A stretch of 64,000 nt of DNA from an uncultured Syntrophomonadaceae bacterium (GTDB taxonomy: Bacteria > Bacillota > Dethiobacteria > DTU022): positions 33,354-97,353 of the forward strand of contig CAZBKZ010000001.1 of the NCBI GenBank assembly GCA_964492615.1. Reading direction: 5' to 3'. Below the pieces are notes generated by a model. It had not been told where the DNA came from. It did no database searches and worked only from the letters and a program-made list of their open reading frames with translations. Shown piece after piece: positions 14,469-64,000 of this stretch; position 1 is the first letter of the stretch; each line of letters opens with the position of its first letter. The position numbers and the translations under genes are program-made.

Positions 14469-14574
14469 CTGCCATGCCTCCTTTGCCCTCTTTATATTAC
14501 ATAATATTGTGTATGTCAATAATATTCTAATATTTACAAAACCAGATAATCATTCTCAACATGTTTTAATTTTA

Positions 14575-18633: not shown

Positions 18634-18643
18634 CTTGACCACC

Positions 18644-22028: not shown

Positions 22029-22043
22029 ATTCCACAACCTCCC

Positions 22044-22439
22044 TTACTTATTATATTTACGAAAACCGCTGACCAGAGCCTGCTGGGGCAACTTCTCAAG
22101 CTGCTCCGGGGTAAGGTCTGCGGGACCGAATTTATTTCCTTCACGACGGCGAAGCAGCACCAGCCGTACGCCTTCCATCATTCGGGCCAGGTCAAGATCC
22201 CGGGGACAGCGCGCTGCACAGGTGAAACAGGAAGCACAAATCCAGGGAGTCTTACTGTTTAATAGCTCTTCTTCAAGACCAAGCTGTAAACAACGGATCA
22301 CCTGGTGCGGCAACAAATCCATGGCTGCTGTTACCGGGCAGGCAGCGCTGCATTTAGCACACTGGTAGCAGTGGTTTGGATCCTGGCCGCTTTGCATTCT
22401 CATCTCATCAACTATACGATCTTTACTATTTATCGCCAT
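22044..22439 (-). CDS. hdrC: Heterodisulfide reductase subunit C-like (2x4Fe-4S)
   Basis: ORF track, 131 aa. Motifs CYQCAKCSAACP and CASCFTCAARCP. Confidence 0.85.
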   Translation of the reverse strand: MAINSKDRIVDEMRMQSGQDPNHCYQCAKCSAACPVTAAMDLLPHQVIRCLQLGLEEELLNSKTPWICASCFTCAARCPRDLDLARMMEGVRLVLLRRREGNKFGPADLTPEQLEKLPQQALVSGFRKYNK

Positions 22440-23262
22440 TCCTGTTTAACCCCCTTTCGGCAGCTCCAGCCATTAGCTGATCAGATTGCAACCCCAACGC
22501 CTCAGCTAAAAGCTCACTGAAATAATAAACTTTTATTACCCCCTTACCGTCATCTGCCGCACAATTTTCAAGGTTATAACGGCATAAGGGGCAGGCGGTT
22601 ATTATTGCCTCGGCTCCAGCATTACGCGCCGAGGTAAAAATGCGTGATACAGTATCGCGGGCCACTGCTTCTTCAGTAACTGAAAGGTAAGCTCCACAGC
22701 ATTCAGTACGGTATGGCGTCTTAATGGGGTCTGCACCAATTGCTTTTAGCATATCTTCCATGATTGTCGGGTTTTCCGGATCATCAAACTGCATCACTTT
22801 AGATGGCCTTAAAAGCAGACATCCATAATAGGCAGACACCTTCTTCCCCTCAAGAGGTTTTTTGACCATTTCAGAAAGTTTTTCAAAGCCGAGATCGTCG
22901 CGCAACACTTCCAGAAAATGCAATACGCGCCCTTCACCGGCATAATCCACTTCGAGATAGTCTGTAACCTTTTTACGGGCCTCTTCATTTCGCTGCATTA
23001 ACTCCTGGGCCCTTTTTAAAACATGATGACAGGCGGCACAGAGCGATACCAACGGTTCACCCTTGGCAGCAGCCAGGGTTCGAACCGGTGAGAGCAGGGT
23101 AATTAATTCATCTTCATAGAGAGGATACACCGCTCCGCAGCATTGCCACTCTTCAAGCTCGACCAATTCGATGCCGAGTGCAGATGCAGCAGCCATTGTG
23201 GTACTTTCCATGTTTTGTGCCTGTCCTTTTAAGGTACATCCTGGGAAATAATGATAACGCAT
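22426..23262 (-). CDS. hdrB: Heterodisulfide reductase subunit B-like (two CCG domains)
   Basis: ORF track, 278 aa. Motifs YFPGCTL...CCGAVYP and YYGCLLLRP...CCGAYL...CPLC. Confidence 0.85.
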   Translation of the reverse strand: MRYHYFPGCTLKGQAQNMESTTMAAASALGIELVELEEWQCCGAVYPLYEDELITLLSPVRTLAAAKGEPLVSLCAACHHVLKRAQELMQRNEEARKKVTDYLEVDYAGEGRVLHFLEVLRDDLGFEKLSEMVKKPLEGKKVSAYYGCLLLRPSKVMQFDDPENPTIMEDMLKAIGADPIKTPYRTECCGAYLSVTEEAVARDTVSRIFTSARNAGAEAIITACPLCRYNLENCAADDGKGVIKVYYFSELLAEALGLQSDQLMAGAAERGLNRNGDK

Positions 23263-34941: not shown

Positions 34942-36726
34942 TTATAATAATGGAGGCCAAAAAAACATGATCAGGGGGATAGCTACCAGGACAATTATCA
35001 GTTCAAGGGGCAATCCCATTCTCCAGTAATCGCTGAATCTGTATCCTCCCGGCCCCATAACGAGAGTGTTTGACTGATGCCCGATTGGAGTAAGAAACGC
35101 GCAGGAAGCTCCCACAGCAACAGACATGAGGAAAGGATCTGCTGAAACTCCAAGCCCCCCGGCAATATTAATCGCAATAGGTGCCATCAGCACAGCTGCG
35201 GCAGCATTATTTACAAGGTCCGATAAAAACATTGTTCCAACGAGAATTACTGTCAGGGTAATCCATAGTTCATAGCCGCCGGCAACACTGAGAATACCGT
35301 CTGCAATTAATTGTGCCCCGCCCGTGGTTTCTAAAGCTCCGCTTACCGGTATCATTGACCCCAGCAAAACAATAACGGGCCAATCAACGCTTTCATATAT
35401 TTCTTTCAGTGACAGTAACCCCGTAATTACCATTAAAAAAGCAGCGCCGGTAAAGGCAATCTGTATTGAGAGCAGGCCAATAGCGGCCATCACCAGGGCA
35501 GATGCAAAAATTAATACTGCCAAAATAACCCGGCGTGGCTGGCCAAATCTTAAACCTCTTTCCACCAGGGGCAGCAGGCCGAGGCCGGGTAAAACTTCGT
35601 AAAGGGTGTCTGGTGGACCCTGAAGAAGCAGCACATCTCCTGAACGAAACCGGACCTGATCTGGAGTTCTGCGCAATCTGCCTCCCTGCCTGGCAATACC
35701 CAGCATATTTACACCATAACGTGAACGCAGCTTTAAATTACGGGCTGTCCGGCCTTCCAGCGGTGAGTTTCTTGTAACTGTCGCTTCGATAACAGCAATT
35801 TCTTCGGATTTAAGTGATTCATTATCCAGCTTATCAGATTCCTCCAGCTTTAGCCCCGTTGCCCCAATCAATTCATGGAGATCCTCGGCATTTGCCTTTA
35901 TTACCAGCGTGTCCCCTTCCTTAAAAGTCCTGTAAGGCGATGGGGCAGCATATTTCTGCCCGTCCCGGATGTGACTGACAACTTCAACTTCGCCGTCAGT
36001 TGCTTTTTCGAGATCACGCAAGCGTTTTCCGGTCAGTGCAGAATCCGGTGGAACATGCACTTCTGTGATATAATCATCGACCTGAAACAGTTCCTCCTGG
36101 GACAATTTACCTTTTCTTTTGGGAATCAATCTCCAGCCGATTAAGATAATAAAGAGTACCCCGGCAAGAGCAATACCTGCTCCAACAGGAGCAAAATCAA
36201 ACATGCGGAAAGTTTCGCCAGCCGCTGTCTGCTCCCTGAAAACAGATATAATTATGTTTGGGGGCGTCCCAACCTGGGTTATTAGACCACCAAGCAGAGA
36301 ACCAAAGGCCAGCGGCATCAGAAACAGCGAAGGAGAGCGTTCATTTTTGCGGGCCATGCGAATTGCTACCGGCATGAATAGAGCCAGGGCCCCTATATTG
36401 TTCATGAACCCTGAGCAAACTGTTACAGCGACTACAAGCATCGCAAGCTGAACCAGGTAGTTATCGCCGGCACGGCCCATTAAGCTGACAATGTAATCAA
36501 CCATACCCGAATTAAATAAAGCCTTGCTGACAATTAAAACAGCAGCTACCGTAATTACCGCCGGATGACCAAAACCGGAAAAAGCCTGATCCGGCGAAAC
36601 TAGCCCAATTATAGTTACAACCAGTAAAGAGAATAGTGCAACCAGATCATAACGCCAGCGGCCCCAGATAAACAGCAATAAAACCACTGCCAAAACAATA
36701 AAAACTATGATTTGTTCATTAAACAT
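34942..36726 (-). CDS. SLC13/DASS-type permease with two central TrkA-C (RCK-C) domains
   Basis: ORF track, 594 aa. TM blocks flank two soluble repeats (TGKRLRDL...GDTLVI and EGRTARNL...GDVLLLQG). Confidence 0.82.
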   Translation of the reverse strand: MFNEQIIVFIVLAVVLLLFIWGRWRYDLVALFSLLVVTIIGLVSPDQAFSGFGHPAVITVAAVLIVSKALFNSGMVDYIVSLMGRAGDNYLVQLAMLVVAVTVCSGFMNNIGALALFMPVAIRMARKNERSPSLFLMPLAFGSLLGGLITQVGTPPNIIISVFREQTAAGETFRMFDFAPVGAGIALAGVLFIILIGWRLIPKRKGKLSQEELFQVDDYITEVHVPPDSALTGKRLRDLEKATDGEVEVVSHIRDGQKYAAPSPYRTFKEGDTLVIKANAEDLHELIGATGLKLEESDKLDNESLKSEEIAVIEATVTRNSPLEGRTARNLKLRSRYGVNMLGIARQGGRLRRTPDQVRFRSGDVLLLQGPPDTLYEVLPGLGLLPLVERGLRFGQPRRVILAVLIFASALVMAAIGLLSIQIAFTGAAFLMVITGLLSLKEIYESVDWPVIVLLGSMIPVSGALETTGGAQLIADGILSVAGGYELWITLTVILVGTMFLSDLVNNAAAAVLMAPIAINIAGGLGVSADPFLMSVAVGASCAFLTPIGHQSNTLVMGPGGYRFSDYWRMGLPLELIIVLVAIPLIMFFWPPLL

Positions 36727-36757
36727 GAAAGCGCCACCGCCTATTCGCTCAACAAAT

Positions 36758-38536
36758 TTACAACGGCCACATCAATAAAATCAGGGGGATAGCAACAAAC
36801 CCGGTTAAAACGGATAAAGGAAGTCCCATCCGCCAGTAATCGCCAAAGTGGTATCCTCCAGGTCCCATTACCAGGGTGCTGGACTGGTGACCAATCGGCG
36901 TGAGAAAAGCGCAGGAAGCTCCAACCGCTACAGTCATTAAGAATGAATCGGCACACACTGACATTTGTGAAGCAATACTCAGCGCTATGGGGGCCATTAA
37001 CAATGCAGCCGCAGCGTTATTAACAACATTTGATAAAAGCATGGTAATTACAAATATTATAGCCAAAACAATCCAGGGTGCTAAATATGCAGAAGCCTGA
37101 TAATATATAAGCTCACCAATAGCCGCTGCTCCACCTGTTGTTTCAAGAGCGCTGCTAACCGGAAGCATCGCTCCCAGTAGAATAATCACCGGCCAATCAA
37201 TACTTTCATAAAGTTCACGCAGGGAAATAAAACCAGTTAATATCATAACCACTGCTGCTGCTGCAAAAGCTATCTGAATCGGGACTAAGCCCAGCGCAGC
37301 AGAAATCAACGCTGCCAAAAAAATACCGGAACCAAGAAGATAACGTCGCGGCTTTTCCAATTTCAAGCCCCTCTCAACCAGGGGCAGGCAGCCAAGAGTA
37401 TTCATTACTTCAACCAGGGCTTCCGAGCGCCCCTGTAATAAAAGCACATCGCCAGCCCGAAAACGGATCCGGTCAAGACGTGCTGAAAGACGAGCTCCTT
37501 CCCGCGATATCCCAAGCATATTGATGCCATATATGCTCCGCAAGTTGAGTGACCTTGCAGTCTGTCCTTCAATAGCAGCATTAGTATTAACAACTGCTTC
37601 TACTATTGATAATGCATCTGAACCGAGATCATCTTTACCGATTTTTTTTGAAGCGGCAAGCTGAAGGCCTGTAACATCAAGAAATTCTTTTAAGTCTTCT
37701 GCATTGGCCTGAATAATAATATGATCGCCTTCTTCAAAAACCCGGTAAGGAGAAAATATTGGCATCTTTCTTTTATCGCGCACATGGCCTACAACTACAA
37801 TATTTCCTTCGCTGGCCTGTCCCAGGTCGAGGAGCCTTTTGCCAGCATATTTTGATCCTTTGGGAACAAAAACCTCAGTTAAATAGCTCTCTATTTCGAA
37901 TAAGTCTTCACGGGATATACGGCCTTGCCGGCAGGGAATCAGGCGCCAGCCAACCAGAACAATAAAAATAACACCGATAAATGCCACACCCAAACCGACA
38001 GGAGCAAAATCGAACATTCTAAAAGGTTCTGCCATATCAGTATTTTCCCTGAAGGATGAGATAATTATATTAGGCGGAGTCCCGATTTGAGTTATCAGGC
38101 CTCCAAGTAAAGAGCCGAAAGCAAGGGGCATTAAATATATTGAAGAAGGCCAGCCGCTTTTTCTGGCCATACGAATTGCAACCGGCAAAAATAGAGCAAG
38201 AGCTCCTATGTTATTCATAAAAGCAGAGCATACTGTTACGGCAGTTACAAGAACTGCCAGCTGCATAACCTGATTATTGTTAAAACGGGACATCTTTCTT
38301 GAAATATTATCTATAATTCCCGAGTTCATCAAACCTCTGCTTAAAACAAGAACCGCAGCGACAGTTATAACAGCAGGATGACTAAACCCGTAAAAAGCCT
38401 CTTCTCCGGGGATAATACCGGCAAGAGTAAGGATCAGCATTGCCATTAATGCTACAATATCATAGCGAATACGACCCCAGATAAAAAAAGCAAGTACCAG
38501 GAATAAAACGATGAAAACCAGGAGCTGATCAGACAT
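36758..38536 (-). CDS. SLC13/DASS-type permease with two TrkA-C domains (tandem paralogue)
   Basis: ORF track, 592 aa. Collinear with the downstream copy and sharing long identical peptide blocks (for example GFSHPAVITVAAVL and NNIGALALF.PVAIRMARK). Confidence 0.82.
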   Translation of the reverse strand: MSDQLLVFIVLFLVLAFFIWGRIRYDIVALMAMLILTLAGIIPGEEAFYGFSHPAVITVAAVLVLSRGLMNSGIIDNISRKMSRFNNNQVMQLAVLVTAVTVCSAFMNNIGALALFLPVAIRMARKSGWPSSIYLMPLAFGSLLGGLITQIGTPPNIIISSFRENTDMAEPFRMFDFAPVGLGVAFIGVIFIVLVGWRLIPCRQGRISREDLFEIESYLTEVFVPKGSKYAGKRLLDLGQASEGNIVVVGHVRDKRKMPIFSPYRVFEEGDHIIIQANAEDLKEFLDVTGLQLAASKKIGKDDLGSDALSIVEAVVNTNAAIEGQTARSLNLRSIYGINMLGISREGARLSARLDRIRFRAGDVLLLQGRSEALVEVMNTLGCLPLVERGLKLEKPRRYLLGSGIFLAALISAALGLVPIQIAFAAAAVVMILTGFISLRELYESIDWPVIILLGAMLPVSSALETTGGAAAIGELIYYQASAYLAPWIVLAIIFVITMLLSNVVNNAAAALLMAPIALSIASQMSVCADSFLMTVAVGASCAFLTPIGHQSSTLVMGPGGYHFGDYWRMGLPLSVLTGFVAIPLILLMWPL

Positions 38537-46204: not shown

Positions 46205-46292
46205 ATACTGTTAGGGCAAAACCATTGTAAAGTGGTGACGCAAAGCTAAAGGGGCCGCAAAAATTTTTGCAGAGCCAGCCAGTTGCCGGTTA
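46205..46292 (+). promoter_or_regulatory. c-di-GMP-I (GEMM-I) riboswitch aptamer
   Basis: AGGGCAAAACCAUUGUAAAGUGGUGACGCAAAGCUAAAGGGGCC-GCAAAAAUUUUUGC-AGAGCCAGCCAGUUGCCGG matches by eye the conserved GEMM-I blocks (GGCAAACC..., GACGCAAAGC..., GCC.GC..GUU.CCG). It lies in a 5' leader. Confidence 0.82.
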
Positions 46293-46376: not shown

Positions 46377-48872
46377 ATGACAAAACGAATTTTTGGCAAA
46401 ACGATTATACCCTTTTTACTGTCCTTACTATTAGTTCTTACAATCTCCTGTCAGGCTCATGCCCTGATGCAAAAACTCGCTTTAAGTGACCTTACAGACC
46501 AGTCTGATTCAATTATTACCGGAACCATAGAAAAACTTCAAAGCCAGTGGGATACAGAACAAGGTAACATATTTACTACTATTACTGTAACTGTTGACAG
46601 TAAAATTAAAGGTGAAGATAAACCGGAAACGATTACTGTGATTATTCCCGGAGGAACTGTTGACGGTATAACTCAGATTGTTTCTGATACCGCTGAATTC
46701 CAGGTTGGCGAAGAAGTTGTTTTGTTTCTCAATGAACTACCATGGTACAGAATAAATTTTGCCGGCTCTGCATCGGCAAGTATTTTTGAAGTATGCGGTA
46801 ACTTCCAGGGTAAAATGAGTATTACTGATGATAGCGTCTCCGGCAAACCACTTGAAGAGCTGGAGGATGAAATAAACTTTTTACTTGAAGCTGATCAGAC
46901 AGATAGTTCCCTTGACCCACTGGAAGACGAACCGCTGTTTGTCAGCAATCATGCATTTGTCACCCTGCCATTTCGCTGGACTGGTCTTTCGCCTGTTGTT
47001 CCCTATTATATAAATTCCTCCAGCTCCAGAATAACCGAGATCAATGCCGCTGCCACCTCCTGGAATAATGCCGGTGCAAACTTTGCATTTAACTACCGCG
47101 GAACACACTCGCGATCCGGTGGACCTCTCTATAATGGAGTAAATGAAATCATGTGGCGCGACCTGGGCACGAATAACGCCCTTGCTATCGCTTCAATCTG
47201 GGTTGCCGGAAATATTATCATGGAAGCAGATATGAGCTTTAACACGAGATATAACTGGAGCACCAGCGGTAGTATCTATGATGTACAAACCGTCGCCTTG
47301 CATGAGTTCGGTCACTGGGTTGGGCTGGATCATTCCAGCACTTTTGGCTCCATCATGTATTACCAGTATAAAGGCACACAGCGTAACCTGCACCAGGATG
47401 ACATTGCAGGAATACGCTATATATACGGCAATTCTGCTCCCGTTTCTCTCTGCACAGTTTCTGTTCCCAGCCGTCCGGGAGGCTCGTCAAGCGGTATTGT
47501 GGGAACGACTTACAACTATACTGCATCAGGATCCAGCTGTTCTAACGGCCATAATCTTGAATACAAGTTTTATTTTAGTGATGATACTGAATCAAACTGG
47601 CGAACGTTCGCCAATTGTAATAAATACTGGAGCAGTCCAGGGAGTCACAGCGTATGGGTACAAACACGCTGTGCAGCCGACAATAACAGGGTTTCATTAA
47701 TGTCTCAGCCACTAGAGATAACCGTATCAGCGGCACCGGTTTACTACGATTTAACGATCTCTGCGGAAGGCGGGGGAATTACTGTTCCAACCAGCGGAAC
47801 ATATCCATATTTAAACGGGACTTCAGTTACAATTGAGGCGACCCCAGATAATGGATGGCAGTTTGAAAAATGGATAATCAATAATGAAGAAAGCTCTAAT
47901 AGCCGGACCAGTTTCAATATAGGCAGAAACACGGTTGCCAGGGCTGTATTTTCAGAGTTAGAAGAAATAGAGGAAGAAAACAGTGAACAGGAAGATCAAA
48001 ATAGCGGGTCCGACACAAATAATGATGACGACAACTCTGTTGTTGATCACCAGGTTAATATTGTAATTGAAGGCCAGGGAACTACAGATCCAGCTGAGGG
48101 TATTCATTATTATAGCTCAGGTGAGAGCTTGCTGCTAACCGCTTTTCCTGCAGAAAACTGGATCCTGGAGAAATGGGTAGTTGGTGACGAAGAATTTAGC
48201 GTACTTTCGATTACTCTTAATGTGAATAGTAGCATGACAATAAATGCAATTTTTAGTGACAGGCCTGAAATAATCGAAGACGATAATGGCCAGGGCCAGG
48301 ATAACGCAGGCAGTAGTTCAGGAGAAAATACGAATGCTGGAAGCAGTGGCGGAACAACCTCTGGTGGCAGTGCCGGTTCAGGAAGTGGAACCAATACCTC
48401 TCCACCGGCGCCCAGTGCACCATCCGCCCCCCCTCCGGCTGTTATTCAGCATCAATTAGCAATAGCTGTTGAAGGAGAAGGTAATGTATACCCCGGACCC
48501 GGTAAACACTCATATAATAAAGACAATGAGGTTAACATAATAGCCGAACCTGCGGCTGGGTGGATTTTTGTTAAATGGATAATAGATGGAAAGGATATAA
48601 GCTTTCACAGCCATTCCATTAAAATGGATCGCGATCGCTCTGCAACAGCATTTTTTTCAAAGCAGAAGCCTGGCGACCTCACCAATGACGGCAATGTCTC
48701 GGTTTCAGATGTAGTAAAAATTACCCGCTACTCACTCGGCATTTCCGAGCTGACAGAAGAGCAGATCGCAAGCGCAGATGTTAATGGCGACGGAGTTGTC
48801 GACGTGCGGGATATTACATTGATCATGCGTTACGCCCTTGGGTTAATCGACTCTTTCCCTGTTGACCGGTAA
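46377..48872 (+). CDS. Secreted matrixin-like (M10) zinc metalloprotease with three InlB-B-repeat-like modules, a G/S/P-rich linker and a C-terminal type-I dockerin
   Basis: ORF track, 831 aa. Signal peptide ...SCQAHA. HEFGHWVGLDH (47301-47333) plus the Met-turn SIMYY. Three ~70-aa repeats. The dockerin duplicate is DLTNDGNVSVSDV... / DVNGDGVVDVRDI.... Confidence 0.85.
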   Translation: MTKRIFGKTIIPFLLSLLLVLTISCQAHALMQKLALSDLTDQSDSIITGTIEKLQSQWDTEQGNIFTTITVTVDSKIKGEDKPETITVIIPGGTVDGITQIVSDTAEFQVGEEVVLFLNELPWYRINFAGSASASIFEVCGNFQGKMSITDDSVSGKPLEELEDEINFLLEADQTDSSLDPLEDEPLFVSNHAFVTLPFRWTGLSPVVPYYINSSSSRITEINAAATSWNNAGANFAFNYRGTHSRSGGPLYNGVNEIMWRDLGTNNALAIASIWVAGNIIMEADMSFNTRYNWSTSGSIYDVQTVALHEFGHWVGLDHSSTFGSIMYYQYKGTQRNLHQDDIAGIRYIYGNSAPVSLCTVSVPSRPGGSSSGIVGTTYNYTASGSSCSNGHNLEYKFYFSDDTESNWRTFANCNKYWSSPGSHSVWVQTRCAADNNRVSLMSQPLEITVSAAPVYYDLTISAEGGGITVPTSGTYPYLNGTSVTIEATPDNGWQFEKWIINNEESSNSRTSFNIGRNTVARAVFSELEEIEEENSEQEDQNSGSDTNNDDDNSVVDHQVNIVIEGQGTTDPAEGIHYYSSGESLLLTAFPAENWILEKWVVGDEEFSVLSITLNVNSSMTINAIFSDRPEIIEDDNGQGQDNAGSSSGENTNAGSSGGTTSGGSAGSGSGTNTSPPAPSAPSAPPPAVIQHQLAIAVEGEGNVYPGPGKHSYNKDNEVNIIAEPAAGWIFVKWIIDGKDISFHSHSIKMDRDRSATAFFSKQKPGDLTNDGNVSVSDVVKITRYSLGISELTEEQIASADVNGDGVVDVRDITLIMRYALGLIDSFPVDR
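47742..48663 (+). repeat. Three intragenic ~70-codon repeat modules (about 47742-47957, 48048-48260 and 48450-48663)
   Basis: The protein-level repeats are Y/HxLxIxxEGxGxxxP..G.H.Y..G..V.I.A.P..GW.F.KW..... They are separated by acidic and G/S/P-rich low-complexity linkers. Confidence 0.7.
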
Positions 48873-49732: not shown

Positions 49733-50839
49733 TTATCTGAGTGAATCTCTTGCTTCAAGAAGAGCTTCATATACCGACCAGGCCGGCAGTCCGCTTGCTT
49801 CCAGCTGATCGAGGAAACCTTCAACAACCGGTGTTGATACCTCGAGCAGATCTGCTGTATCCTGCTCAGTCCACTGGTACACTTCTATGCCATTTTCCTC
49901 CATCTTATCAATACCACGCTGTGCAGCGTCGGCATAAACCGAGGAGGCCTTCAGACCCAGCTCCAGACCGCTGTTTTCCTCAAAAATAGCCTGAATGTCC
50001 GCCGGAAGTGAATTCCAGGTGTCTTCATTCATAAAAATAGCCTTGGTTGCATAGAACATACTCATACCATTCGTGCCATATTCCAGTACCTCGTAGAGGC
50101 TGTAAGTATCAATAGCAGCATGATCAGTCAACAAACCATCCACTACTCCACGCTCCAAAGCATCATATACCTCAGGCATGGGAATCAGGGAACCCATTCC
50201 ACCAAGAGCATCAATTGTATCTTCTTCAAGCTCGCCGGAAACCCTTAAATCACGTCCCCTGAAACCGTCTACTCCCTGAATTGGCGCATTATTGGTATAA
50301 GCATTGCCTTCAGGAAGTCCATAGAGGGCAAATACCTTATAACCTGCCCATTCATTCTGGAAATCTTCATTTTCTTCCAGCAGGATATTAATGGTCCGGG
50401 TTACCTCTTCCATTGACTGGAAATGAGCAGGGAACCTGGTAAAATCAGTTAACGGAAAACGACCGGGAGTATACCCGAGCATTGTAAAACCTATATCTAC
50501 CGCTCCGGTAGCAACGTCATCCACGATTGCCCTGCTTTCAGACAAAGAACCACCAGGATAAAAATTAATTTCTACCCTGCCATTTGATGCTGCTTCAATA
50601 GCTTCAATCCATGGCTCAACTACATTTACATGCTGGTGGTGAGGAGCTGGGAACGGAGATGCAAAATCAAGACTAATTACTTCACCGGCATCAACCGGTT
50701 CATCAACAGGCTCATCAACAGGCTCATCAACCGGAGCATCGACTGCTTCCTGCCCGCCACAACCTGTAAGAGCAAGCCCCAGGAAAAACAATACCATCAC
50801 GGGTAATAAAAACAGCTTCCAGCGCTTCAAATTAAACAT
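49733..50839 (-). CDS. TRAP transporter substrate-binding protein (DctP type), lipoprotein with an acidic (VDEP)n linker
   Basis: ORF track, 368 aa. Lipobox LALTGC and a DctP-like core (INFYPGGSL...GAVDIGF). Confidence 0.85.
   Translation of the reverse strand: MFNLKRWKLFLLPVMVLFFLGLALTGCGGQEAVDAPVDEPVDEPVDEPVDAGEVISLDFASPFPAPHHQHVNVVEPWIEAIEAASNGRVEINFYPGGSLSESRAIVDDVATGAVDIGFTMLGYTPGRFPLTDFTRFPAHFQSMEEVTRTINILLEENEDFQNEWAGYKVFALYGLPEGNAYTNNAPIQGVDGFRGRDLRVSGELEEDTIDALGGMGSLIPMPEVYDALERGVVDGLLTDHAAIDTYSLYEVLEYGTNGMSMFYATKAIFMNEDTWNSLPADIQAIFEENSGLELGLKASSVYADAAQRGIDKMEENGIEVYQWTEQDTADLLEVSTPVVEGFLDQLEASGLPAWSVYEALLEARDSLR
50689..50748. repeat. Tandem 12-nt repeat (4-5 units) inside the TRAP-1 binding-protein gene
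   Basis: catcaaccggtt / catcaacaggct / catcaacaggct / catcaaccggag / catcgactgctt on the plus strand. It encodes PVDEPVDEPVDEPVD in the mature N-terminal linker. Confidence 0.8.
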
Positions 50840-50944
50840 TTTATTCCCTCCAATTTATAGTCTTTAGTTCTTTCAGGACCCCACACATCAAAGCACAAAG
50901 AGTTTATTCTTGCACAGGCATCCCCCCCCATTTCAATTTATTAA

Positions 50945-52249
50945 TTAATACATTAAGCCAGGTAAGAAAAGCGCAATTTGCGGAAATGCGGCTACTATTA
51001 TAGCCCCGATAACCAGGGTAACCCAAAATGGTACCTGATATTTAAAAACCTGGGCAGAAGGAACCTTTGTAACCTGGGCGACAACCAGGCTGGCTACCCC
51101 AACTGGTGGGGTGAGCAGGCCGGTTAAGTTCATCATAGTGGTCATAACACCAAACCAGATGGGGTTATAACCCAATTCCAGGATAATAGGGTAAAATATT
51201 GGAGTCATAATAACTATTGTTGCCAACTCATCCATGAAAAAGCCCATAATCGTATAAATCAGCAGTATAATCAAAATTATTATAAAAGGAGTTACGTCCA
51301 GCGCATCTATGAAAGATGATAGGCTAAAGGGAATCCTACTTCTGGTGAGAAAAATACCAAACAACTTACCACCGATAACTATAGCAAAAACCATGGCGGT
51401 TATGGTAGTTGCCGAACTGATCGAATCAACAAATTTTGCCCACGACAGTCTTCTCATGATCAGCACAAGCACCAGGGATAAAAATGCCCCTGCCGCGCCC
51501 GCTTCTGTCGGTGTAAAAAACCCGAGATATATTCCTCCGATGCTTATAACAAAAATTACCGGTAACGGCCAGACATACATTACTTTTTTCAGATCTATTG
51601 AAAATCGTTCTTTTGTATCTGAGACGGGAGGGCCAAGGTCAGGCCTGACCCGAATTACGATATACGTGGTAATCATTAGCATTAGAGTAAGCATTATCCC
51701 GGGGATCAAACCGGCAATCAGAACCTGCCCGATCGACTCTTCTGTAATAACGCCATATAATATCAGGGTTGTGCTGGGTGGAATTACAATACCCAGGGTT
51801 GAACCAACCGAAGCGATACTGGCTGCCAAACCTTGATTATACTTATGCTTGGTCATTTCAGGCACAGCAATTGAACCTATAGTTGAAGCAGCGGCAGTGG
51901 CTGAACCGCAAACAGCGCCAAAAACTGCTGCTGCTCCCAGGGTGGCAATAGCCATCCCACCCCTGACTTTTCTGAATAAATCGCTCATTACGTTATAAAG
52001 GTCGGCTGCCACTCCCGCTTTCGATAAAAATATACCCATAAGCACAAAGAGTGGAATAACACTCAGAGAATAATTTTCTACCAGTATAACCAAATCGCTG
52101 CCCAATTTACTTAAAGAAGGTCCGCTGCTGGTCAGCATTATATTACCAAGCACCGCAATAGCGATTAATGCAAAACCTACAGGTAATCTCAAGGTTATCA
52201 GGATCAACATCAGCACTATGCCAAGAATGCCTATTTCAATTGGTGCCAT
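50945..52249 (-). CDS. TRAP transporter large permease (DctM type)
   Basis: ORF track, 434 aa. Polytopic and collinear with the second DctM in this window. Confidence 0.88.
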   Translation of the reverse strand: MAPIEIGILGIVLMLILITLRLPVGFALIAIAVLGNIMLTSSGPSLSKLGSDLVILVENYSLSVIPLFVLMGIFLSKAGVAADLYNVMSDLFRKVRGGMAIATLGAAAVFGAVCGSATAAASTIGSIAVPEMTKHKYNQGLAASIASVGSTLGIVIPPSTTLILYGVITEESIGQVLIAGLIPGIMLTLMLMITTYIVIRVRPDLGPPVSDTKERFSIDLKKVMYVWPLPVIFVISIGGIYLGFFTPTEAGAAGAFLSLVLVLIMRRLSWAKFVDSISSATTITAMVFAIVIGGKLFGIFLTRSRIPFSLSSFIDALDVTPFIIILIILLIYTIMGFFMDELATIVIMTPIFYPIILELGYNPIWFGVMTTMMNLTGLLTPPVGVASLVVAQVTKVPSAQVFKYQVPFWVTLVIGAIIVAAFPQIALFLPGLMY

Positions 52250-52742
52250 CGTTTTTTCCTCCTACCGGCTGTGAAAAAATCAGATCTGTTACAACAACTA
52301 AAAAGAGCCCAAGTAGTCCTAAAAATGCCAGTAATATTACAGGCCAGCTAGGTATTTGCAAACTTGCAGTCCTGGCACCGGTATCCATCATGTATATCCC
52401 ATGAGCCAGGAGCCGCCAGGTCATAACCCCTGCAACTGCAACAAATGCCAATTGTTTAAGATTATATATAATCAACCGGGAGGCTCTAGACTTTAAATAC
52501 TTTTCATAATATCCATAGAAAAAATCAATTTCAACGTTTTCCTTATTCCTTTCTGCATTGCCAAAAGCAAAATAAACTAGAATAACGAGAAAAATCCCGG
52601 TTAATTCATATATTCCGCGAAATCTAAACTCAAACAGCGCTCTGCCAATAATGTCAATTACCGTCATTGTCATTAAAGCCACTAAGAATAAACAGCTGAT
52701 GTAGTGGAAATAGCGGTTAAACGTAATAAGCGCTTTTCTCAT
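52236..52742 (-). CDS. TRAP transporter small permease (DctQ type)
   Basis: ORF track 52236..52748. 4 TM segments, and it overlaps dctM by 14 nt. The start is set at ATG 52742, 7 nt after AAGGGGG. Confidence 0.8.
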   Translation of the reverse strand: MRKALITFNRYFHYISCLFLVALMTMTVIDIIGRALFEFRFRGIYELTGIFLVILVYFAFGNAERNKENVEIDFFYGYYEKYLKSRASRLIIYNLKQLAFVAVAGVMTWRLLAHGIYMMDTGARTASLQIPSWPVILLAFLGLLGLFLVVVTDLIFSQPVGGKNDGTN

Positions 52743-52914
52743 AATCACGCCCCCTTTATAAATTTATTTATAGCTTCATCTAATCTTTAAAATACAAGCA
52801 TCTTATTTGACCTTACCAACAGGCAATATGTTACTATTCTCAATTGCCAAAACTGTAAGGTCACCAAGCAAACATGTATCACTAAATTGACTAGTCATAA
52901 CTGTATATTTAAGT

Positions 52915-56631: not shown

Positions 56632-57939
56632 TTACAAAAGGCCGGGCAACCAGAGGCCGACTTTCGGGAATATCATAACAAGAATGATTACAGCCATCTG
56701 GATCAGGAAATAGGGCACTCCACCACGGTATACATCATGCATTTCCACTTCGTCGCATGAACCTTTAAGAGCATAAAGCACCATGCCAACAGGGGGAGTG
56801 ATGCCGGCAATACCGGTTGTGATCAGGATTAATACACAGAACCAGAGGGGGTCGAAACCAAGAGCAATTACTGCAGGTGTAAAAAGTGGCACAGTAATCA
56901 TCATCATGGCGATCGAATCCATAAAACAGCCGAGAACTAAGATACAGCCAATCATTATAGCAACAATAAAGTACGGACCTACTGGCGCATTAACTATCGA
57001 ATTAACAATAGACGGCCCTGCACCAGTCAGAGTAAGCACCCTGCCAAAAATACTCGAAGTAGAAATAATCAAAAAAAGCATGCTGGTCATCTTTGCCGAA
57101 GCCATCAGACTGTCAACGAAAATTTTCCAGGTTAGTCTTCTGTAAACCAGGGCCAACAGTATTGTGCCAATAGCTCCCAATGCTGCGGCTTCAGTTGCTG
57201 TTGCAATACCTAAAAAGATCACGCCCAAAACCAGTAAAACAATAATTCCGAGAGGCAAAGCCTTTGCAATTCTTAAAAGAACTTCTTTAAAAGGATACCT
57301 GTATTCTTGTTCTACTTTATCAGGGACAAGGTGCGGCCATATTTTGCTGGATACCAGAATAAAAACTATAAATAGGGCCGAGCAAATTAGCCCCGGAAGC
57401 AAGCCGCCAATCAGAACCCGGTTTGGAGACACTTCCGCAAGAGTTGCCAGGATAATGGCCAGCGAACTTGGTGGAATAAGGGTTGCCAGGGCTGCCCCTC
57501 CAAGAGCGGTCCCGCAGGCAAACCACTTGGTATAACCATGCCTGAGCATTCTGGGAACCAGCGTAGCTCCAAGAGTAGCCCCAGTTGCTATCGGGGCCCC
57601 ACTGAGTACAGCAAGCACAGTTCCCGTACCTACTGTAAGAATTGCATCCTGCGTTCTTAATTTACCAAAAATGCTTTCTGAAGCATTTGTTACCAGATCA
57701 ATAAACTGACATCGAACAATAATCTCTCCCATAATTATAAATAGAGGCACGGCAATTAAAACAAAGGAATTAAGGGATGCAAACATTCCCACAGCAATTA
57801 AGCTGAAAAACCTGGTGCCGCTGTGCAAAACAAGAACAGTTATATTAGCCGCCATGAATGATAATGCTACAGGAAAACCAAGCAGCATCAATGCAAAAAA
57901 TACTCCAAGCAGCACAAGGATAACTACTGATACTTCCAT
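56632..57939 (-). CDS. TRAP transporter large permease (DctM type)
   Basis: ORF track 56632..57957. Polytopic. The start is set at ATG 57939, 6 nt after GAGGAGG. Confidence 0.88.
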   Translation of the reverse strand: MEVSVVILVLLGVFFALMLLGFPVALSFMAANITVLVLHSGTRFFSLIAVGMFASLNSFVLIAVPLFIIMGEIIVRCQFIDLVTNASESIFGKLRTQDAILTVGTGTVLAVLSGAPIATGATLGATLVPRMLRHGYTKWFACGTALGGAALATLIPPSSLAIILATLAEVSPNRVLIGGLLPGLICSALFIVFILVSSKIWPHLVPDKVEQEYRYPFKEVLLRIAKALPLGIIVLLVLGVIFLGIATATEAAALGAIGTILLALVYRRLTWKIFVDSLMASAKMTSMLFLIISTSSIFGRVLTLTGAGPSIVNSIVNAPVGPYFIVAIMIGCILVLGCFMDSIAMMMITVPLFTPAVIALGFDPLWFCVLILITTGIAGITPPVGMVLYALKGSCDEVEMHDVYRGGVPYFLIQMAVIILVMIFPKVGLWLPGLL

Positions 57940-57995
57940 GACAAACCTCCTCAACAACCTGTCATATAAATAACTAAACTTACAGCGAAAGCTGT

Positions 57996-58553
57996 TTAGT
58001 TTGTATCAACAACCTCGCCCGGGCTTCCAATATTAGTTCCAGAATTACTACCTTTAAATAAACCTTTAAATTCTGTCCAGGTTTGAATCAAAAATTCTAT
58101 AACCATGAATAACCAACCAATTGGCATAAAGATCATCAGGTAAACAAGCGGAAATCTGATTGGATAATCGGTAGACATACCTTCTGCCCATACATTATTG
58201 ATTACATAATCTCCGGTCGCGTAAAGCAGAAAACAACAAAAACCAAAGCCAAGCAATTTCATAATTGCACTATTAACAGCACGGACACGTTCACCAAACT
58301 TATCAGTCATAAAAGTAACAGATATGTGCGCTTTTTGACTTAAAACCCATGCGGCACCCAGGAAAGTTACCAAAAACAACGAATAACCGCTAAACTGCAT
58401 TACGAACTGAATTGAGTAATTGAAAAAATATCGCGCAACAACTTCTGTTGTAATTAAAAGCATAGCAAAAACAATAATCATTGAACAAATAGCCGATGTT
58501 AATTTATACCAAAAGCTAATAAGACGGTTAAAAATCTCAGTTACTTTGGCCAT
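57996..58553 (-). CDS. TRAP transporter small permease (DctQ type)
   Basis: ORF track, 185 aa. 4 TM segments, located between the dctP-type and dctM-type genes. Confidence 0.78.
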   Translation of the reverse strand: MAKVTEIFNRLISFWYKLTSAICSMIIVFAMLLITTEVVARYFFNYSIQFVMQFSGYSLFLVTFLGAAWVLSQKAHISVTFMTDKFGERVRAVNSAIMKLLGFGFCCFLLYATGDYVINNVWAEGMSTDYPIRFPLVYLMIFMPIGWLFMVIEFLIQTWTEFKGLFKGSNSGTNIGSPGEVVDTN

Positions 58554-58650
58554 ACCGCAATTTCAACCTCACCTTCTGTTTAGGATATGGCGCACCCGGC
58601 AGGCTGAAGATACAGCCTGCCGGGGTGCGTCACAACAAAAAACGTAATTA

Positions 58651-59718
58651 CTAGTTAACAGGGCTGTAAGGCCCGACAAACCTGCCTTGAGGCGGAGCAT
58701 TCAGTTTTTCATGTATTTCTATGATGCGGTCCGCCATTTCATCGCCACTGTTGGGTCTTACAGCAACTTCAATATACTTGTCAAAGAAGATGTCGTAGAA
58801 CTCCTGTGCTTCTGTGCCTTCAAAGGTAATGTCAACAACACCTTTTTCATCTGCAGTGTCAAACAGGTGAGTTATTTGATCAACAGCAAATTGTTCGAAT
58901 AAAGGTGCGGCCTCTTCAACTGCTTCATATAACGCAACCTGCAAGTGCTCAGGTAAAGCCTCAACACTGTCAACGTTGGCAAAAATAACACTGAGAACAA
59001 AAGCAAAAGAAGGGTAGATGTTATAGGGGGCAACTTCATAATAGTTCCAGCTGTCATAAGTAGCCGTTGAACTGATCGCTCCATCTATAACTCCCTGCTG
59101 CAGCGAGTCGATAGTGTCAGCATCGCTCATAAACATTGATGTTGCACCCAAGGCTTCAAGCGCAGGCATATATGCTGCAGGGCTTCTCAGCCTTTTGCCC
59201 CTGAGATCATCAACACTGTCAATTGGGTCTTTCATAAAAATGTGCATAGTTCCTGCCGGACATTCGGTGATTAAAGTTGCATTGTATTTTTCACGGTGGG
59301 TCTGGTCAATAAGTTCAAACAGTCCAGCCGCTTCACGTTCTTCTTTGGTTCCCCAAGTATAAGCAATTGCTGTTCCTTCGGGAAGGTCCTGTAGATAAAA
59401 AGCAGGAGTTGTTCCAATCAGATCAAGGGTTCCATCGGCAAGCAGTTTAATCTGATCCGGGGAAGGGAATGTTTCAGGGCCTGAAACATTGATAATTAAC
59501 TGACCTTCTGTTTTCTCTTCCAGGACTTCAATAAAGATATCAAAAACATCACGCATAATGTCGCCGGGGACCCAACCTGAAGCTGCTTCCCATACTATCG
59601 GATCTGTAACCTGCTCAGCTGGTTGATCTCCTGCCGGCTCTGTAGATCCTCCACAACCTGTAACGAACAATGCCATAACCATTAACAACGATAAAGCTAC
59701 AAATAATACTTTTTTCAT
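58651..59718 (-). CDS. TRAP transporter substrate-binding protein (DctP type), lipoprotein
   Basis: ORF track, 355 aa. Lipobox FVTGC. GAGGAGG lies 8 nt before the ATG. Confidence 0.82.
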   Translation of the reverse strand: MKKVLFVALSLLMVMALFVTGCGGSTEPAGDQPAEQVTDPIVWEAASGWVPGDIMRDVFDIFIEVLEEKTEGQLIINVSGPETFPSPDQIKLLADGTLDLIGTTPAFYLQDLPEGTAIAYTWGTKEEREAAGLFELIDQTHREKYNATLITECPAGTMHIFMKDPIDSVDDLRGKRLRSPAAYMPALEALGATSMFMSDADTIDSLQQGVIDGAISSTATYDSWNYYEVAPYNIYPSFAFVLSVIFANVDSVEALPEHLQVALYEAVEEAAPLFEQFAVDQITHLFDTADEKGVVDITFEGTEAQEFYDIFFDKYIEVAVRPNSGDEMADRIIEIHEKLNAPPQGRFVGPYSPVN

Positions 59719-60322: not shown

Positions 60323-60523
60323 TTACTTAGTTTCCTTCTCGGGTTTTTCCATCAAGACTCTTTCTTTGAAATACAGGCAGGGCATTCCTGAGGAATTGCT
60401 GACTACATCAGCGGGGAAATAACGTGATTTAAAATTAAGCGCTCTGCAACCCCGGGGAAACTTGTTATCCCAGGTCACATAATAGTGTATACATTTCAAA
60501 CAGTTAACTCTCATAACAGTCAC
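60323..60523 (-). CDS. Small (66 aa) Cys-containing hypothetical protein
   Basis: ORF track. MTVMRVNCLKCIHYYVTWDNKFPRGCRALNFKSRYFPADVV..., with CxxC plus two more Cys. It lies 38 nt downstream of msrA on the same strand. Confidence 0.55.
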   Translation of the reverse strand: MTVMRVNCLKCIHYYVTWDNKFPRGCRALNFKSRYFPADVVSNSSGMPCLYFKERVLMEKPEKETK

Positions 60524-60561: not shown

Positions 60562-61395
60562 TTATTTGAGATACCTTTCGAGATCATTGATCCCGGAGAC
60601 TGACAAACCGTATTCTGACAGCTCCGCCTCTACCAGATTAGGATTTGCATAGCCTCCGATTATACCATTTAAGCGAGCAGCTGCCGTTGAATTAACAAAG
60701 TCTTGAAACTCTTTAAAGTAACCCTTAATTTCTGAAGACAGGTTATTATCTCCTTGCAAATAATACTTCTGGTGATAATCTTCGGCAAGATAAAAGTATT
60801 TATAAGGTATTATTAACGTATTTACTTCTTCCCCCAAGACCTTCTCCCAAGCCTCTTTGCTTTCCAAGGCATCCCTTTTCTGCTCGTCGTTATGATAAAA
60901 AATGATTGAAATATACTGCCTGGAATACTGGGGACCGACAGGGTTATGCCCGTTCCAGAAAAGTTCCAGAATCTCTTTGTAACTTACCTGGGCCGGATCA
61001 TAATCTATCTGTAGTGTCTCAGTATGATCTCCCAGTTGATAGTAAGTGGGGTTTTCAGTTGAACCGCCGGCATAGCCAACCCTGGTGCGGTAAACTCCTT
61101 TAACCTGCCCGAACCGGGCATCAGGACCCCAGAATCAGCCCATGGCCAGGGTGGCTGTTTCCATTTTGTCAGGGACCTGAAGATCAACAGGTGGAATCAT
61201 AAGCTCTTTTTCCCGATTGTTATCTGTTACCATACCTGAAACCTCCTTATCCAACTCTTCTTTATGAACATGATCATCGGAGTATCCTGCACAGGAGACC
61301 ATAAAGGAAAGCCCTGCTATTGTTAATGTAAAAATATAAAGTATCTTTACTAATTGATTATTTCTGCTGCCGGTGTTTTTATTCATTCTATTCAC
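60562..61395 (-). CDS. msrA: Peptide-methionine (S)-S-oxide reductase MsrA, predicted selenoprotein (TGA at 61135-61137 read as Sec), with a signal/lipoprotein-like N-terminus and a C-terminal extension
   Basis: This joins track ORFs 61135..61395 and 60562..60867 with the open stretch between them. The read-through gives ...ATLAMG-U-FWGPDARFGQVKGVYRTRVGYAGGSTENPTYYQLGDHTETLQIDYDP...YLAEDYHQKYY. The TGA replaces the Cys of GCFWG. The start is GTG 61395 or ATG 61386. Confidence 0.75.
61106..61120 (-). promoter_or_regulatory. SECIS-like hairpin downstream of the msrA UGA
   Basis: The mRNA can fold UGCCCG-GUU-CGGGCA, starting 15 nt after the UGA, with G/U residues in the apex. Flanking CCU/AGG can extend the stem. 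Confidence 0.55.
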
Positions 61396-64000
61396 CTGCT
61401 CCGGTAATAGACGCGATCATTTCCTGGGCTTCACTAAAGTTAGGATCCCCTTCGCCCACTCGTTCAAGGTATTTTAATGCTTCATTGTTATCACCGTTCA
61501 AGTAAGCCGCACGCCCTATAACGTAAGCAATAGACCTTGCATTCCCATAATTGGACTGCATCTTTGTTTCAATATCATACAACTCTTTGTAATATTCCAT
61601 CGCCGGGCCCGGCAGATCATTCTGAACATAATATTCGATCAAACTTAGCCTGGACCAGGCTGGCTGCTGATAACCGCTTAAGTAATGAGGACGCAGATCC
61701 ATGAGACGGTCAATATAATTCAGCCCTTCCCTGGTATCGACATAATTAAGCAGCATTGTTCCATAACGGGCCAGGTAGTTGGGGTTATAAGGTTCCAACT
61801 CATAAGCTCTTTCTGCCAGATCAAGCATTTTGTTAAGTTCACTCTGGCTTTGCATTCTTACTGCCTGTCCTTCAATCAGAACGTTATAGTTATGATAGTT
61901 TTCAGCCCGGTACGGATCAAGGGCTATCGCTTTCTCAATCTCAGTCAGAGCCTGCTTGATATTACCGCCCTCGAAAAGTTCCTGCGAGCGCCATGTTGTT
62001 TGCAAACCGTTATAAAGAATAAGGGTGTAGGTAAAAAGGGATAGACCGAAAACAACTCCCAGTAAACCGGGAAGTAAACTTCTAAAGGCTCCTTCGTTAA
62101 TTTCATTTACACTAATATCCTGCTTGTCATTAAAATAAAGGCTCCTGCCGGCACCAAGCAGGGCAAACAAGAATATACCCACAGCGGCCATGGAAAAATT
62201 CCAATCTATAGCGCTGTGTGCTCCAAGAGCGGCAACAGGCATAAAAACAGCCGTCCAGTAGTGCCACCTGGACGGCGGCGCTTTCATTATAAAACATTTT
62301 TTGAGGAAAGCAAGAGTAAAACTAACCCAAATTCCTACAAAGGCAAGAAACCCAATTATGCCTGCTTCAATCCATACCTGTAGATAATGGTTATGCACTT
62401 CCCGGGAATCATAGGGCTGATCCTGGTAACTTTTGTATACGGCAGCCCAACCTCCTCCTCCCAAGCCAAAGAGGGGGTAATCTTTGATTACTTTTACCGC
62501 ATCGGAAAATAGTTCAAAACGCCGGTCCATATTGCGATCGCGGGATAATGAAAAAATTCGATCATAAAAACGGTCAGGTAAAATTCTGCTCCAGGTAAAA
62601 TTCAACCTTCTGCTGCTGTCAACTGAAATTAACTGTACTGAACGTACGGCAACCATGGTTCCTGGATAACGGTTAAACACTTCCACCGAAAGCCTGTCTG
62701 TTTGCGGACCGGTCTCCAGATCAAAGGTAAAAGTGTCCCACCCGCTTGTGCTTTGGCCGTGGTGTTTCAACAGCTCTAAATTTCGATAACCGGGTATTTC
62801 TCCAAGAACCTGGACACCCCATACATAATCAGGAGGCCCGGACTCACGGTTTAAATCTATATCGGCTTTAACATCTAAGATCAGTTGATACTGCTCTTCA
62901 GGCCTGATGTTATTTATCATCTGCTTTAGTGATTGCAGCTGCTCAGGCTCACCGGATTTTGTCTCCAGGCTTGTCGGAGCCAACAGAGGAACAATCACAA
63001 AAACAACTAAAACAACTACTATCACTGCTGTAAAAACTACAAAAATCGCTTTTTTATGCCTGCCTTCCAGGGAAAGAATATACTCTGCTGCTAACCCTAA
63101 AAACAGAGCAGCAACCAGCGCAAGCATTATGGGCAACCAGGCCATTGCCGGTGTGTCTGAGCGAAATATGGGATCGATCCAAAAAGCTACCGGAAGAGCC
63201 GGAATAATAGAAGCTGCCATGTAGAGAACTGCACGCAACCGGTTACCAGGGGGAGAGGCAAACACCATCAACACTGCCAGAGGTGGCAGCAGGAGCCAGG
63301 CCCCTCGTGAAAACGTAAGAATCACGGTGATTAGCATCAGAACTGCAGGCACCAGGTAAACTATTTTAAGCATCTTCCTGGCAAGGGGCGCCAGAGCAAG
63401 AGTCAGGAAATAAGCTGCCATCAGGTAAGCTGCTGCTGTATTAGCATAACCCATCGGTGAGGCTATTCTGTTTGCTGCATACGCGCCAATGAAATCCCAG
63501 TGACCGGCTGCTACTCCCAGGCTGGCCACGGTAATCACCGTTGCAGCAACCAGGATGATGTGCAAAACCAGGTTCAATCCGGGCGGTAATTTTTCATTCT
63601 CTTTAAAGGTAGCGGTACTATCATTACCACCTCTTGTCCATGGAAAACGAAATGACCAGTGCCGGCAGATATCAAGAACTACCAGGTATACGGACAGGTA
63701 AGATGCTATTTTTAACAACTCTTCCAGGGCTTCGCGTTTATTAACGGCAAAGCCAAGGAAAGAAATCAGGTAACTGAGGAGAAGCAGCAGCAGGCAGATA
63801 TCCAGCGGTGATCCAATGAACCTGCTATCACTTTTTACAAACCGGAACAGGCCCCATATAAAAAGCAAACCGAAAATTATCATATTGGCAACCAGTAATT
63901 CGAGAGGGAAAAATAAACCACGGTAAAACGGACTTATTAACAGCAATAGAGAAACAATTATCAGCATCAGGGGTAAAAATATTTTAGAAACAGCCGCTGT
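61388..64000 (-). CDS. O-antigen-ligase-like (Wzy_C) polytopic membrane protein with C-terminal TPR repeats; the frame is open to the window edge
   Basis: ORF track 61388..63967 (859 aa). Many TM segments, the motif REVHNHYLQVWIEAGIIGFLAF, and a TPR-like C-terminal ~200 aa. The 11 codons upstream of ATG 63967 contain no stop and no RBS is visible, so the start may lie outside the window. Confidence 0.7.
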   Translation of the reverse strand, partial: TAAVSKIFLPLMLIIVSLLLLISPFYRGLFFPLELLVANMIIFGLLFIWGLFRFVKSDSRFIGSPLDICLLLLLLSYLISFLGFAVNKREALEELLKIASYLSVYLVVLDICRHWSFRFPWTRGGNDSTATFKENEKLPPGLNLVLHIILVAATVITVASLGVAAGHWDFIGAYAANRIASPMGYANTAAAYLMAAYFLTLALAPLARKMLKIVYLVPAVLMLITVILTFSRGAWLLLPPLAVLMVFASPPGNRLRAVLYMAASIIPALPVAFWIDPIFRSDTPAMAWLPIMLALVAALFLGLAAEYILSLEGRHKKAIFVVFTAVIVVVLVVFVIVPLLAPTSLETKSGEPEQLQSLKQMINNIRPEEQYQLILDVKADIDLNRESGPPDYVWGVQVLGEIPGYRNLELLKHHGQSTSGWDTFTFDLETGPQTDRLSVEVFNRYPGTMVAVRSVQLISVDSSRRLNFTWSRILPDRFYDRIFSLSRDRNMDRRFELFSDAVKVIKDYPLFGLGGGGWAAVYKSYQDQPYDSREVHNHYLQVWIEAGIIGFLAFVGIWVSFTLAFLKKCFIMKAPPSRWHYWTAVFMPVAALGAHSAIDWNFSMAAVGIFLFALLGAGRSLYFNDKQDISVNEINEGAFRSLLPGLLGVVFGLSLFTYTLILYNGLQTTWRSQELFEGGNIKQALTEIEKAIALDPYRAENYHNYNVLIEGQAVRMQSQSELNKMLDLAERAYELEPYNPNYLARYGTMLLNYVDTREGLNYIDRLMDLRPHYLSGYQQPAWSRLSLIEYYVQNDLPGPAMEYYKELYDIETKMQSNYGNARSIAYVIGRAAYLNGDNNEALKYLERVGEGDPNFSEAQEMIASITGAGE

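Follow-up and report, generated by a model that had tools for sequence, protein, structure and literature searches.

For one gene of an uncultured Syntrophomonadaceae bacterium, the question is whether a TGA codon at the position of the catalytic cysteine (Cys) ends translation or is read as selenocysteine (Sec), and where in the cell the resulting enzyme would act. The gene, msrA, encodes a homolog of the methionine sulfoxide reductase MsrA and lies on the minus strand near the end of the 64-kb stretch of contig CAZBKZ010000001.1 that was analyzed as a whole, termed the window here. The evidence makes a functional Sec-containing MsrA (Sec-MsrA) very probable. It is also quite probable that the product is a peptide-methionine (S)-S-oxide reductase of the type known from Clostridium (Alkaliphilus) oremlandii and that it is synthesized as a lipoprotein precursor. 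The gene is real, and within an already known selenoprotein family it is an ordinary member.

Translation of the minus strand from 60562 to 61395 yields 277 sense codons and a terminal stop, with a single internal stop, the TGA, in the context ETATLAMG-stop-FWGPDARFG. The listing of open reading frames (ORFs) cuts the gene in two (61135..61395 and 60562..60867), and gene callers divide it into an 83-amino acid (aa) piece and a piece of 91-101 aa. An earlier reading made without database searches (the sequence-only reading) had described such a split in an otherwise open frame, and this description stands. Translation likely starts at ATG 61386 rather than at GTG 61395, since this ATG lies 1 nucleotide (nt) past the TAG of the upstream gene, GGAGCAGGTGA precedes it, and JGI gene calls on contigs identical to the window use the same start. 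The Shine-Dalgarno sequence before this ATG is graded strong. Residues are numbered from it, which makes the predicted Sec residue 84 (U84) and the lipobox Cys residue 32 (C32; Table 1).

Profile searches, run with Cys put in place of the internal stop, identify the product as an MsrA. Over residues 77-214, Pfam PMSR (PF01625) reaches 144.6 bits (cut-off, 23.7), and TIGR00401 reaches 127.6 bits (cut-off, 108.1). The best match of solved structure is the Sec-MsrA of C. oremlandii (CoMsrA; PDB 4LWJ, 4U66, 7C13), and its E-value of 4e-60 settles the fold. In the phmmer alignment, query residues 73-248 fall on residues 5-180 of the 209-residue chain and the internal stop falls on Cys16, in agreement with the proposal that the TGA takes the place of the catalytic Cys. 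Residues Y115, E123, Q157, Y158, H205, and Y208 correspond to CoMsrA Y47, E55, Q89, Y90, H137, and Y140, and all six of these active-site residues are present and invariant or nearly so in an alignment of 21 homologs.

In CoMsrA, a Sec enzyme of the 1-Cys type, catalysis depends on the helical domain (PMC4333827). Judged by alignment, the C-terminal 60 residues of the window protein are probably this helical domain, with the alignment covering chain residues 145-180 of the domain (145-209) and stopping at residue 180 of 209, and with the Pfam profile PF20939 (Selenoprotein MsrA helical domain) scoring 18.9 bits, below its cut-off of 23.7. Residues S233, T234, R238, N240, and G241 of this region are invariant in the homolog alignment. 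The sequence-only reading gave the length of this extension correctly as 60 aa and considered it unusual, though among enzymes of this subfamily it probably corresponds to the domain known from CoMsrA to be required for catalysis (PMC4333827). The same reading placed the linker at ~50 aa, and it measures ~30-40 aa.

Like CoMsrA, the window MsrA has one redox residue and no resolving Cys, and it probably combines a catalytic domain with a C-terminal helical domain. CoMsrA comprises 209 aa with no N-terminal extension, whereas the window MsrA additionally bears a predicted lipoprotein signal peptide of 31 aa, a linker of ~30 aa, and an IPPxD...P motif. This motif ([IV]PP[IV]D..xP) is nearly invariant 12-20 residues before the Sec or Cys among the relatives and occupies 61171-61197 on the minus strand (residues 64-72) in the window; D68 and P72 are invariant among the 21 homologs, and P65 and I67 nearly so. 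CoMsrA, which starts at about query residue 69, is without the motif.

Table 1. Features of the msrA locus, in positions of the 64-kb window.
Feature	Position	Strand	Remarks
Wzy_C (O-antigen-ligase-like) and TPR membrane protein	61388..64000	-	Upstream gene; TAG 1 nt before the msrA ATG
msrA coding sequence	60562..61386	-	274 codons and TAA stop, with one UGA predicted to be read through
Predicted lipoprotein signal peptide (residues 1-31) and lipobox Cys32	61291..61386	-	Matches a PROSITE PS51257-type rule
Acidic linker, poorly conserved	61195..61290	-	Residues ~33-64; window and L001 strongly diverged, frame open
IPPVDLQVP N-terminal motif and lead-in to first strand	61159..61194	-	Motif residues 64-72
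PMSR catalytic domain	60745..61158	-	Residues 77-214; Pfam match
UGA codon 84, predicted Sec	61135..61137	-	Catalytic position of G[C/U]FWG; aligned with CoMsrA Cys16
Candidate SECIS hairpin UGCCCG-GUU-CGGGCA	61106..61120	-	6 bp; 14 nt from UGA to stem
Probable C-terminal helical domain	60565..60744	-	Residues 215-274; by alignment to CoMsrA
orf66, 66-aa protein with four Cys (CxxC...C...C)	60323..60523	-	Starts 39 nt past the msrA stop

Homologous loci were collected by scanning GTDB species, each represented by one genome, and the best 80 loci were taken. Of these, 72 have TGA as the catalytic codon and the other 8 have TGT or TGC; together with the window, the former give 73 Sec-type genes, and the latter serve as the Cys-type comparison (n = 8). 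By record title, the best 80 loci come from Dehalococcoidia, Anaerolineae, Deltaproteobacteria, Desulfobacterota, Syntrophobacteria, Nitrospirota, Planctomycetota, Actinomycetota, Acidobacteriota, Spirochaetaceae, Synergistaceae, and Bacillota (Syntrophomonadaceae, Tindallia), and they include the complete genome of Desulfosarcina alkanivorans. The TGA loci span about 10 phyla by the same measure, and the expectation that Sec-MsrA is limited to a few organisms has to be given up, as at least 72 further species-representative genomes carry the gene.

The hairpin downstream of the UGA was proposed to be a SECIS (a sequence for Sec insertion), and comparison across these genes supports the proposal. 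In the window, its first nucleotide is the 15th past the TGA, and the minimum-free-energy (MFE) fold contains it. Gap-free alignment of the post-UGA segments of the 73 TGA genes gives the consensus NNCCCR-GUU-YGGGNN at its position, with variants including GACUCCCGGUUCGGGAGUC, GAAUCCCGGUUCGGGAUU, and GACGCCCGGUUCGGGCGUC. The G-U-U apex is invariant, while the stem covaries at columns 18-32 (CG/AU/UA), 19-31 (UA/GC), and 23-27 (GC/AU). The hairpin contains 45 double-change cells, a count matched by 0 of 500 shuffles, and its score lies above that of every slid register.

The hairpin is absent from the Cys-type relatives. Over a 24-nt segment, the mean MFE is -10.2 kcal/mol in Sec-type genes versus -3.1 kcal/mol in Cys-type genes, with no overlap between the two (Mann-Whitney p = 2e-6), and for the Gly codon of the 3′ arm, 72 of 73 Sec-type genes use GGG, versus 1 of 8 Cys-type genes (Fisher p = 2e-8). 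In the window itself, the local MFE of -9.4 kcal/mol compares with a mean of -3.4 kcal/mol for synonymous recodings, of which a fraction of 0.014 is at least as stable.

The SECIS of Escherichia coli fdhF is a short hairpin within the coding region, with a G and a U in its apical loop ~23-25 nt from the U of the UGA. The window hairpin resembles it in lying a little over ten nt past the UGA and in having a G/U apex at about that distance from its U. It differs in its shorter stem, which has 6 bp in the window and up to 8 bp in relatives, and in its loop, which is GUU or a 5-nt R-GUU-Y; no bulged U was identified in the hairpins examined here.

Export was assessed with a regular expression written for this analysis after the PROSITE PS51257-type signal. 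It calls for a basic n-region, an uncharged h-region, and [LIVMFWSTAG]2-[LIVMFYSTAGCQ]-[AGS]-C with the Cys at position 15-35. The window protein matches, with the n-region MNKNTGSRNNQLVK (basic residues K3, R8, and K14), the h-region ILYIFTLTIAGLSFMV, and the lipobox FMVS, which ends the stretch TIAGLSFMVS; cleavage is predicted before C32. At the homologous locus of a sister species (L001), which comes from the same sample series and whose MsrA is 79% identical in aa sequence, LVSS followed by Cys stands at the same place. The exported or membrane-anchored appearance that had been noted for this protein is thereby upheld, and the catalytic domain is likely extracytoplasmic. The CodY and dockerin domains encoded in the window indicate a Bacillota host, in which the lipoprotein would sit on the outer face of the membrane.

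A signal peptide had been thought unusual for Sec-MsrA and instead turns out to be the majority state, as 56 of the 73 Sec-type genes encode a hydrophobic N-terminal segment 35-67 residues before U. A lipobox is found in 23 of the 73, a few carry twin-arginine-like motifs, and Cys-type relatives also bear hydrophobic N-termini.

Several results weigh against a Sec-MsrA lipoprotein. Some concern the hairpin: its stem in the window is only 6 bp long, the fold of the 60 nt downstream of the UGA is no stabler than shuffles (z = -0.81), and Rfam, scanned with gathering thresholds for the window and by E-value for 61040-61180, returned chance matches only, with no SECIS family. In addition, the RNAalifold consensus of the 73 post-UGA segments was a different, invariant helix that includes the UGA; it shows no covariation and was set aside in favor of the named hairpin because the latter covaries. 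Others concern gene content, for which the whole window was scanned with Pfam. No selA, selB, selD, or tRNA-Sec gene lies within the window, nor does any thioredoxin-fold protein or CcdA/DsbD, and no conserved neighbor family or envelope reductant accompanies the gene at the 72 homologous loci. Finally, the export reading rests on a self-implemented sequence rule, and the internal Met codons M63 and M75 could in principle yield a cytoplasmic form.

The alternative given the most weight is that the protein is a Sec-MsrA but not an exported lipoprotein, being either held by an uncleaved membrane anchor or made from an internal start (M63 or M75) as a cytoplasmic enzyme like CoMsrA. The hydrophobic N-terminus is indeed missing from CoMsrA and from 17 of the 73 Sec-type relatives, and among the 56 hydrophobic N-termini, 33 are without a lipobox. 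The lack of an envelope reductant encoded nearby would also fit. The reductant of CoMsrA is glutaredoxin, not thioredoxin (PMC4333827), and this cytoplasmic protein would not reach an enzyme outside the cell. Nevertheless, the strong Shine-Dalgarno sequence stands before ATG 61386, which abuts the upstream stop, and the n-region, h-region, and lipobox are kept in the sister species despite the divergence of the signal peptide and linker in other respects. The basic residues precede the hydrophobic stretch, so the enzyme would come to lie outside even with an uncleaved anchor. A non-lipoprotein Sec-MsrA is therefore considered rather unlikely.

Termination at the UGA, leaving a pseudogene or truncated gene with no functional MsrA, would agree with the behavior of automatic gene callers, which stop at the UGA, and with the lack of sel genes in the window. 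However, the TGA is kept in 72 other species with the protein conserved on both sides and the hairpin co-evolving. L001 has the same TGA, an identical hairpin, and the same gene order as the window. Over the 25 codons that precede the TGA, it differs from the window by 6 synonymous and 7 non-synonymous changes, and over the 30 codons that follow, by 6 synonymous changes and 1 non-synonymous change. Moreover, no start codon occurs in the window between the TGA and TTG 60867, so the 3′ part alone could not form an active domain. A pseudogene is very unlikely, and msrA is, on this comparative evidence, selected as a read-through gene. The window species and the sister species also share JGI sample 3300033177 (Ga0334883_1000260 and Ga0334883_1000033), each with a TGA-type gene.

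A reading of the UGA by a Trp or Cys tRNA, or under a code in which UGA is sense, would likewise give a protein that is not a selenoprotein. Some database entries do show Trp at the homologous codon, as GWFWG (protein entries P0003, P0006, P0007, P0040, P0074, P0088, and P0116; L091 97-906). These entries are products of the gene caller, which translates TGA as Trp under an alternative table, as verified on P0007 and L091, and Trp at the position of the nucleophile would be inactive. TGA is the stop of 9 of the 50 window genes, which indicates that the genetic code is not reassigned, and the hairpin is specific to TGA genes. This alternative is thus highly improbable.

A sequencing or assembly error in a TGC or TGT codon, for which nothing speaks beyond the prior probability of such errors, is negligible and already refuted. 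The same 83-aa product ending at the TGA occurs on at least 23 contigs from separate samples and assemblers (JGI and ENA assemblies), and three long contigs, taken from different samples, match the window at 100% identity across 11-15 kb. The TGA is found in the sister species as well. Records of the window species come from JGI samples 3300033164-3300033178 and 3300037528, ENA assemblies ERZ272522xx-ERZ272523xx, and SRR10872647 and SRR10872584.

Sec-MsrA is a recognized bacterial selenoprotein family with a GUFWG/H motif (PMC13188914, PMC9312934, PMC1976440, PMC2398784). The window gene resembles the family in having the UGA at the catalytic Cys and the SECIS directly downstream in the coding region (PMC13188914, PMC9312934, PMC1976440). 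A term search found no mention of a signal peptide on Sec-MsrA (PMC13188914, PMC9312934, PMC2398784, PMC1976440) and none of the periplasm in connection with MsrA (PMC13188914, PMC9312934, PMC2398784). Among the genomes scanned here, the predicted exported form is the majority.

Exported Msr enzymes of the Cys type are described in other studies, namely MsrAB2 of Streptococcus pneumoniae with Etrx1/2 and CcdA, MsrAB of Streptococcus gordonii, and the MsrAB/PilB proteins of Haemophilus influenzae and Neisseria (PMC3914529, PMC7034828, PMC9404787). The likeness lies in an Msr placed outside the cytoplasmic membrane for the repair of envelope proteins, a location that is predicted in the case of the window MsrA. 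These are Cys enzymes and usually MsrA-MsrB fusions, whereas the window MsrA has one predicted Sec and no MsrB domain. The streptococcal systems are described as having dedicated thioredoxin-fold lipoproteins or neighboring operon genes, in contrast to the window, where no thioredoxin or CcdA gene is linked.

C32 is the sole Cys of the window protein, which therefore has no resolving Cys. No Cys follows U in 42 of the 72 Sec-type relatives from other genomes, and 20 of the 70 full-length Sec-type relatives carry a Cys near the C-terminus, in most cases within a CP[LV]-like motif. This Cys is probably a resolving one; the family would thus comprise two redox subtypes. Loci with a single Cys in the tail include L008, L016, L019, L020, L022, L026, L034, L045, L051, L054, L062, and L074, among others.

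For the lipoprotein precursor favored here, the following course may be proposed. Translation would begin at ATG 61386, probably coupled to that of the upstream Wzy_C/TPR gene, and UGA codon 84 would be read as Sec once the hairpin 14 nt downstream, through its GUU apex, recruits SelB with Sec-tRNASec. The signal peptide would then direct Sec-dependent export, with lipidation of Cys32 and cleavage before it, leaving an enzyme of ~243 aa tethered by the acidic linker at the outer face of the cytoplasmic membrane. There, the selenolate of U84 would attack Met-S-sulfoxide in envelope or surface proteins, or free methionine sulfoxide, to give Met and a selenenic acid. With no resolving Cys, an external reductant would have to reduce the selenenic acid directly, and such a reductant is not encoded nearby. 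The absence of a CcdA or thioredoxin-like lipoprotein gene noted near msrA in the sequence-only reading extends to the whole window. Across the 73 loci, an ORF with WCxxC lies within ~4.5 kb at only 3.

The immediate surroundings of msrA are shared with the sister species alone, as the order Wzy_C/TPR gene, msrA, orf66, and TRAP transporter genes is common only to these two. The Wzy_C/TPR gene is probably co-transcribed with msrA. It is an 859-aa ORF in the window and 908 aa by JGI on the identical contigs, and its true start probably lies past the window end, the ORF likely being a cut-off reading. The product of orf66 shares 86% identity with its counterpart in the sister species, which occupies the corresponding place (L001 10537-10704, where JGI calls no gene), a higher conservation than that of MsrA. 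Neither Pfam nor NCBIfam gives a match for it, and the other 80 loci lack it; it is a possible operon member with msrA. At the 73 loci, the neighbors include a sensor kinase (11), an ABC ATPase (7), a response regulator (6), and an MsrAB fusion (4). The largest families from neighborhood clustering were discarded as antisense ORFs of msrA itself. A second, Cys-type MsrA gene (GGCFWC, with a signal peptide) adjoins the Sec-MsrA gene at L036 6788-7933, L050 ~4982, and L084 ~4910, and two of these three products are long enough for MsrA-MsrB fusions.

A search of the window for further ORF pairs separated by a TGA turned up no second convincing selenoprotein gene. HdrA and MvhD are selenoproteins in some organisms. 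The window carries, at 16806-23262 (-), genes for an HdrA2-like flavoprotein, an overlapping MvhD/FlpD, two Fe-S proteins, an NAD/FAD oxidoreductase, and an HdrB-like CCG protein. HdrA2/MvhD was rejected as a TGA-split pair, the two being separate overlapping ORFs in different frames; their uninterrupted ORFs mark them as Cys forms.

Two TRAP (DctPQM) sets lie at 49733-52748 and 56632-59718 (-), and the placement of the set just downstream of msrA is kept in the sister species. Other transporters are encoded by two tandem paralogous CitMHS/TrkA-C genes at 34942-38536 (-). A c-di-GMP-I riboswitch at 46205-46290 (+; 62.6 bits) stands directly upstream of a gene for an 831-aa protein with matrixin (M10 peptidase), InlB B-repeat, PKD, and dockerin domains at 46377-48872 (+). 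A CodY-type regulator adjoins LarC (nickel insertion) and an LarB-like AIR carboxylase at 13665-16484 (-).

As judged by the genomes scanned, the Sec-MsrA family is far more widespread in anaerobes than the literature suggests. Its predicted exported architecture is common in genomes, and no description of it was found in the papers searched by term. Since gene callers split the gene into two meaningless ORFs or give Trp in relatives, the family is largely hidden in protein databases. Its members may be recovered by the signature G-TGA-TTY-TGG followed by NNCCCRGUUYGGGNN.

A more tentative idea, which at present seems doubtful, is that most Sec-MsrAs of anaerobes are extracytoplasmic single-selenol enzymes with neither a resolving Cys nor a linked thioredoxin or CcdA, and that they depend on an unrecognized recycling route. 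If so, the selenenic acid would be recycled by an unlinked envelope reductant, a low-molecular-weight thiol, or environmental sulfide, and Sec would have been selected for turnover independent of a partner. The IPPxD...P motif and, in the window lineage, orf66 could then belong to this route. The wide occurrence of Sec-MsrA and its mostly predicted export raise a testable question, namely how a one-selenol enzyme would be reduced outside the cytoplasm of strict anaerobes.

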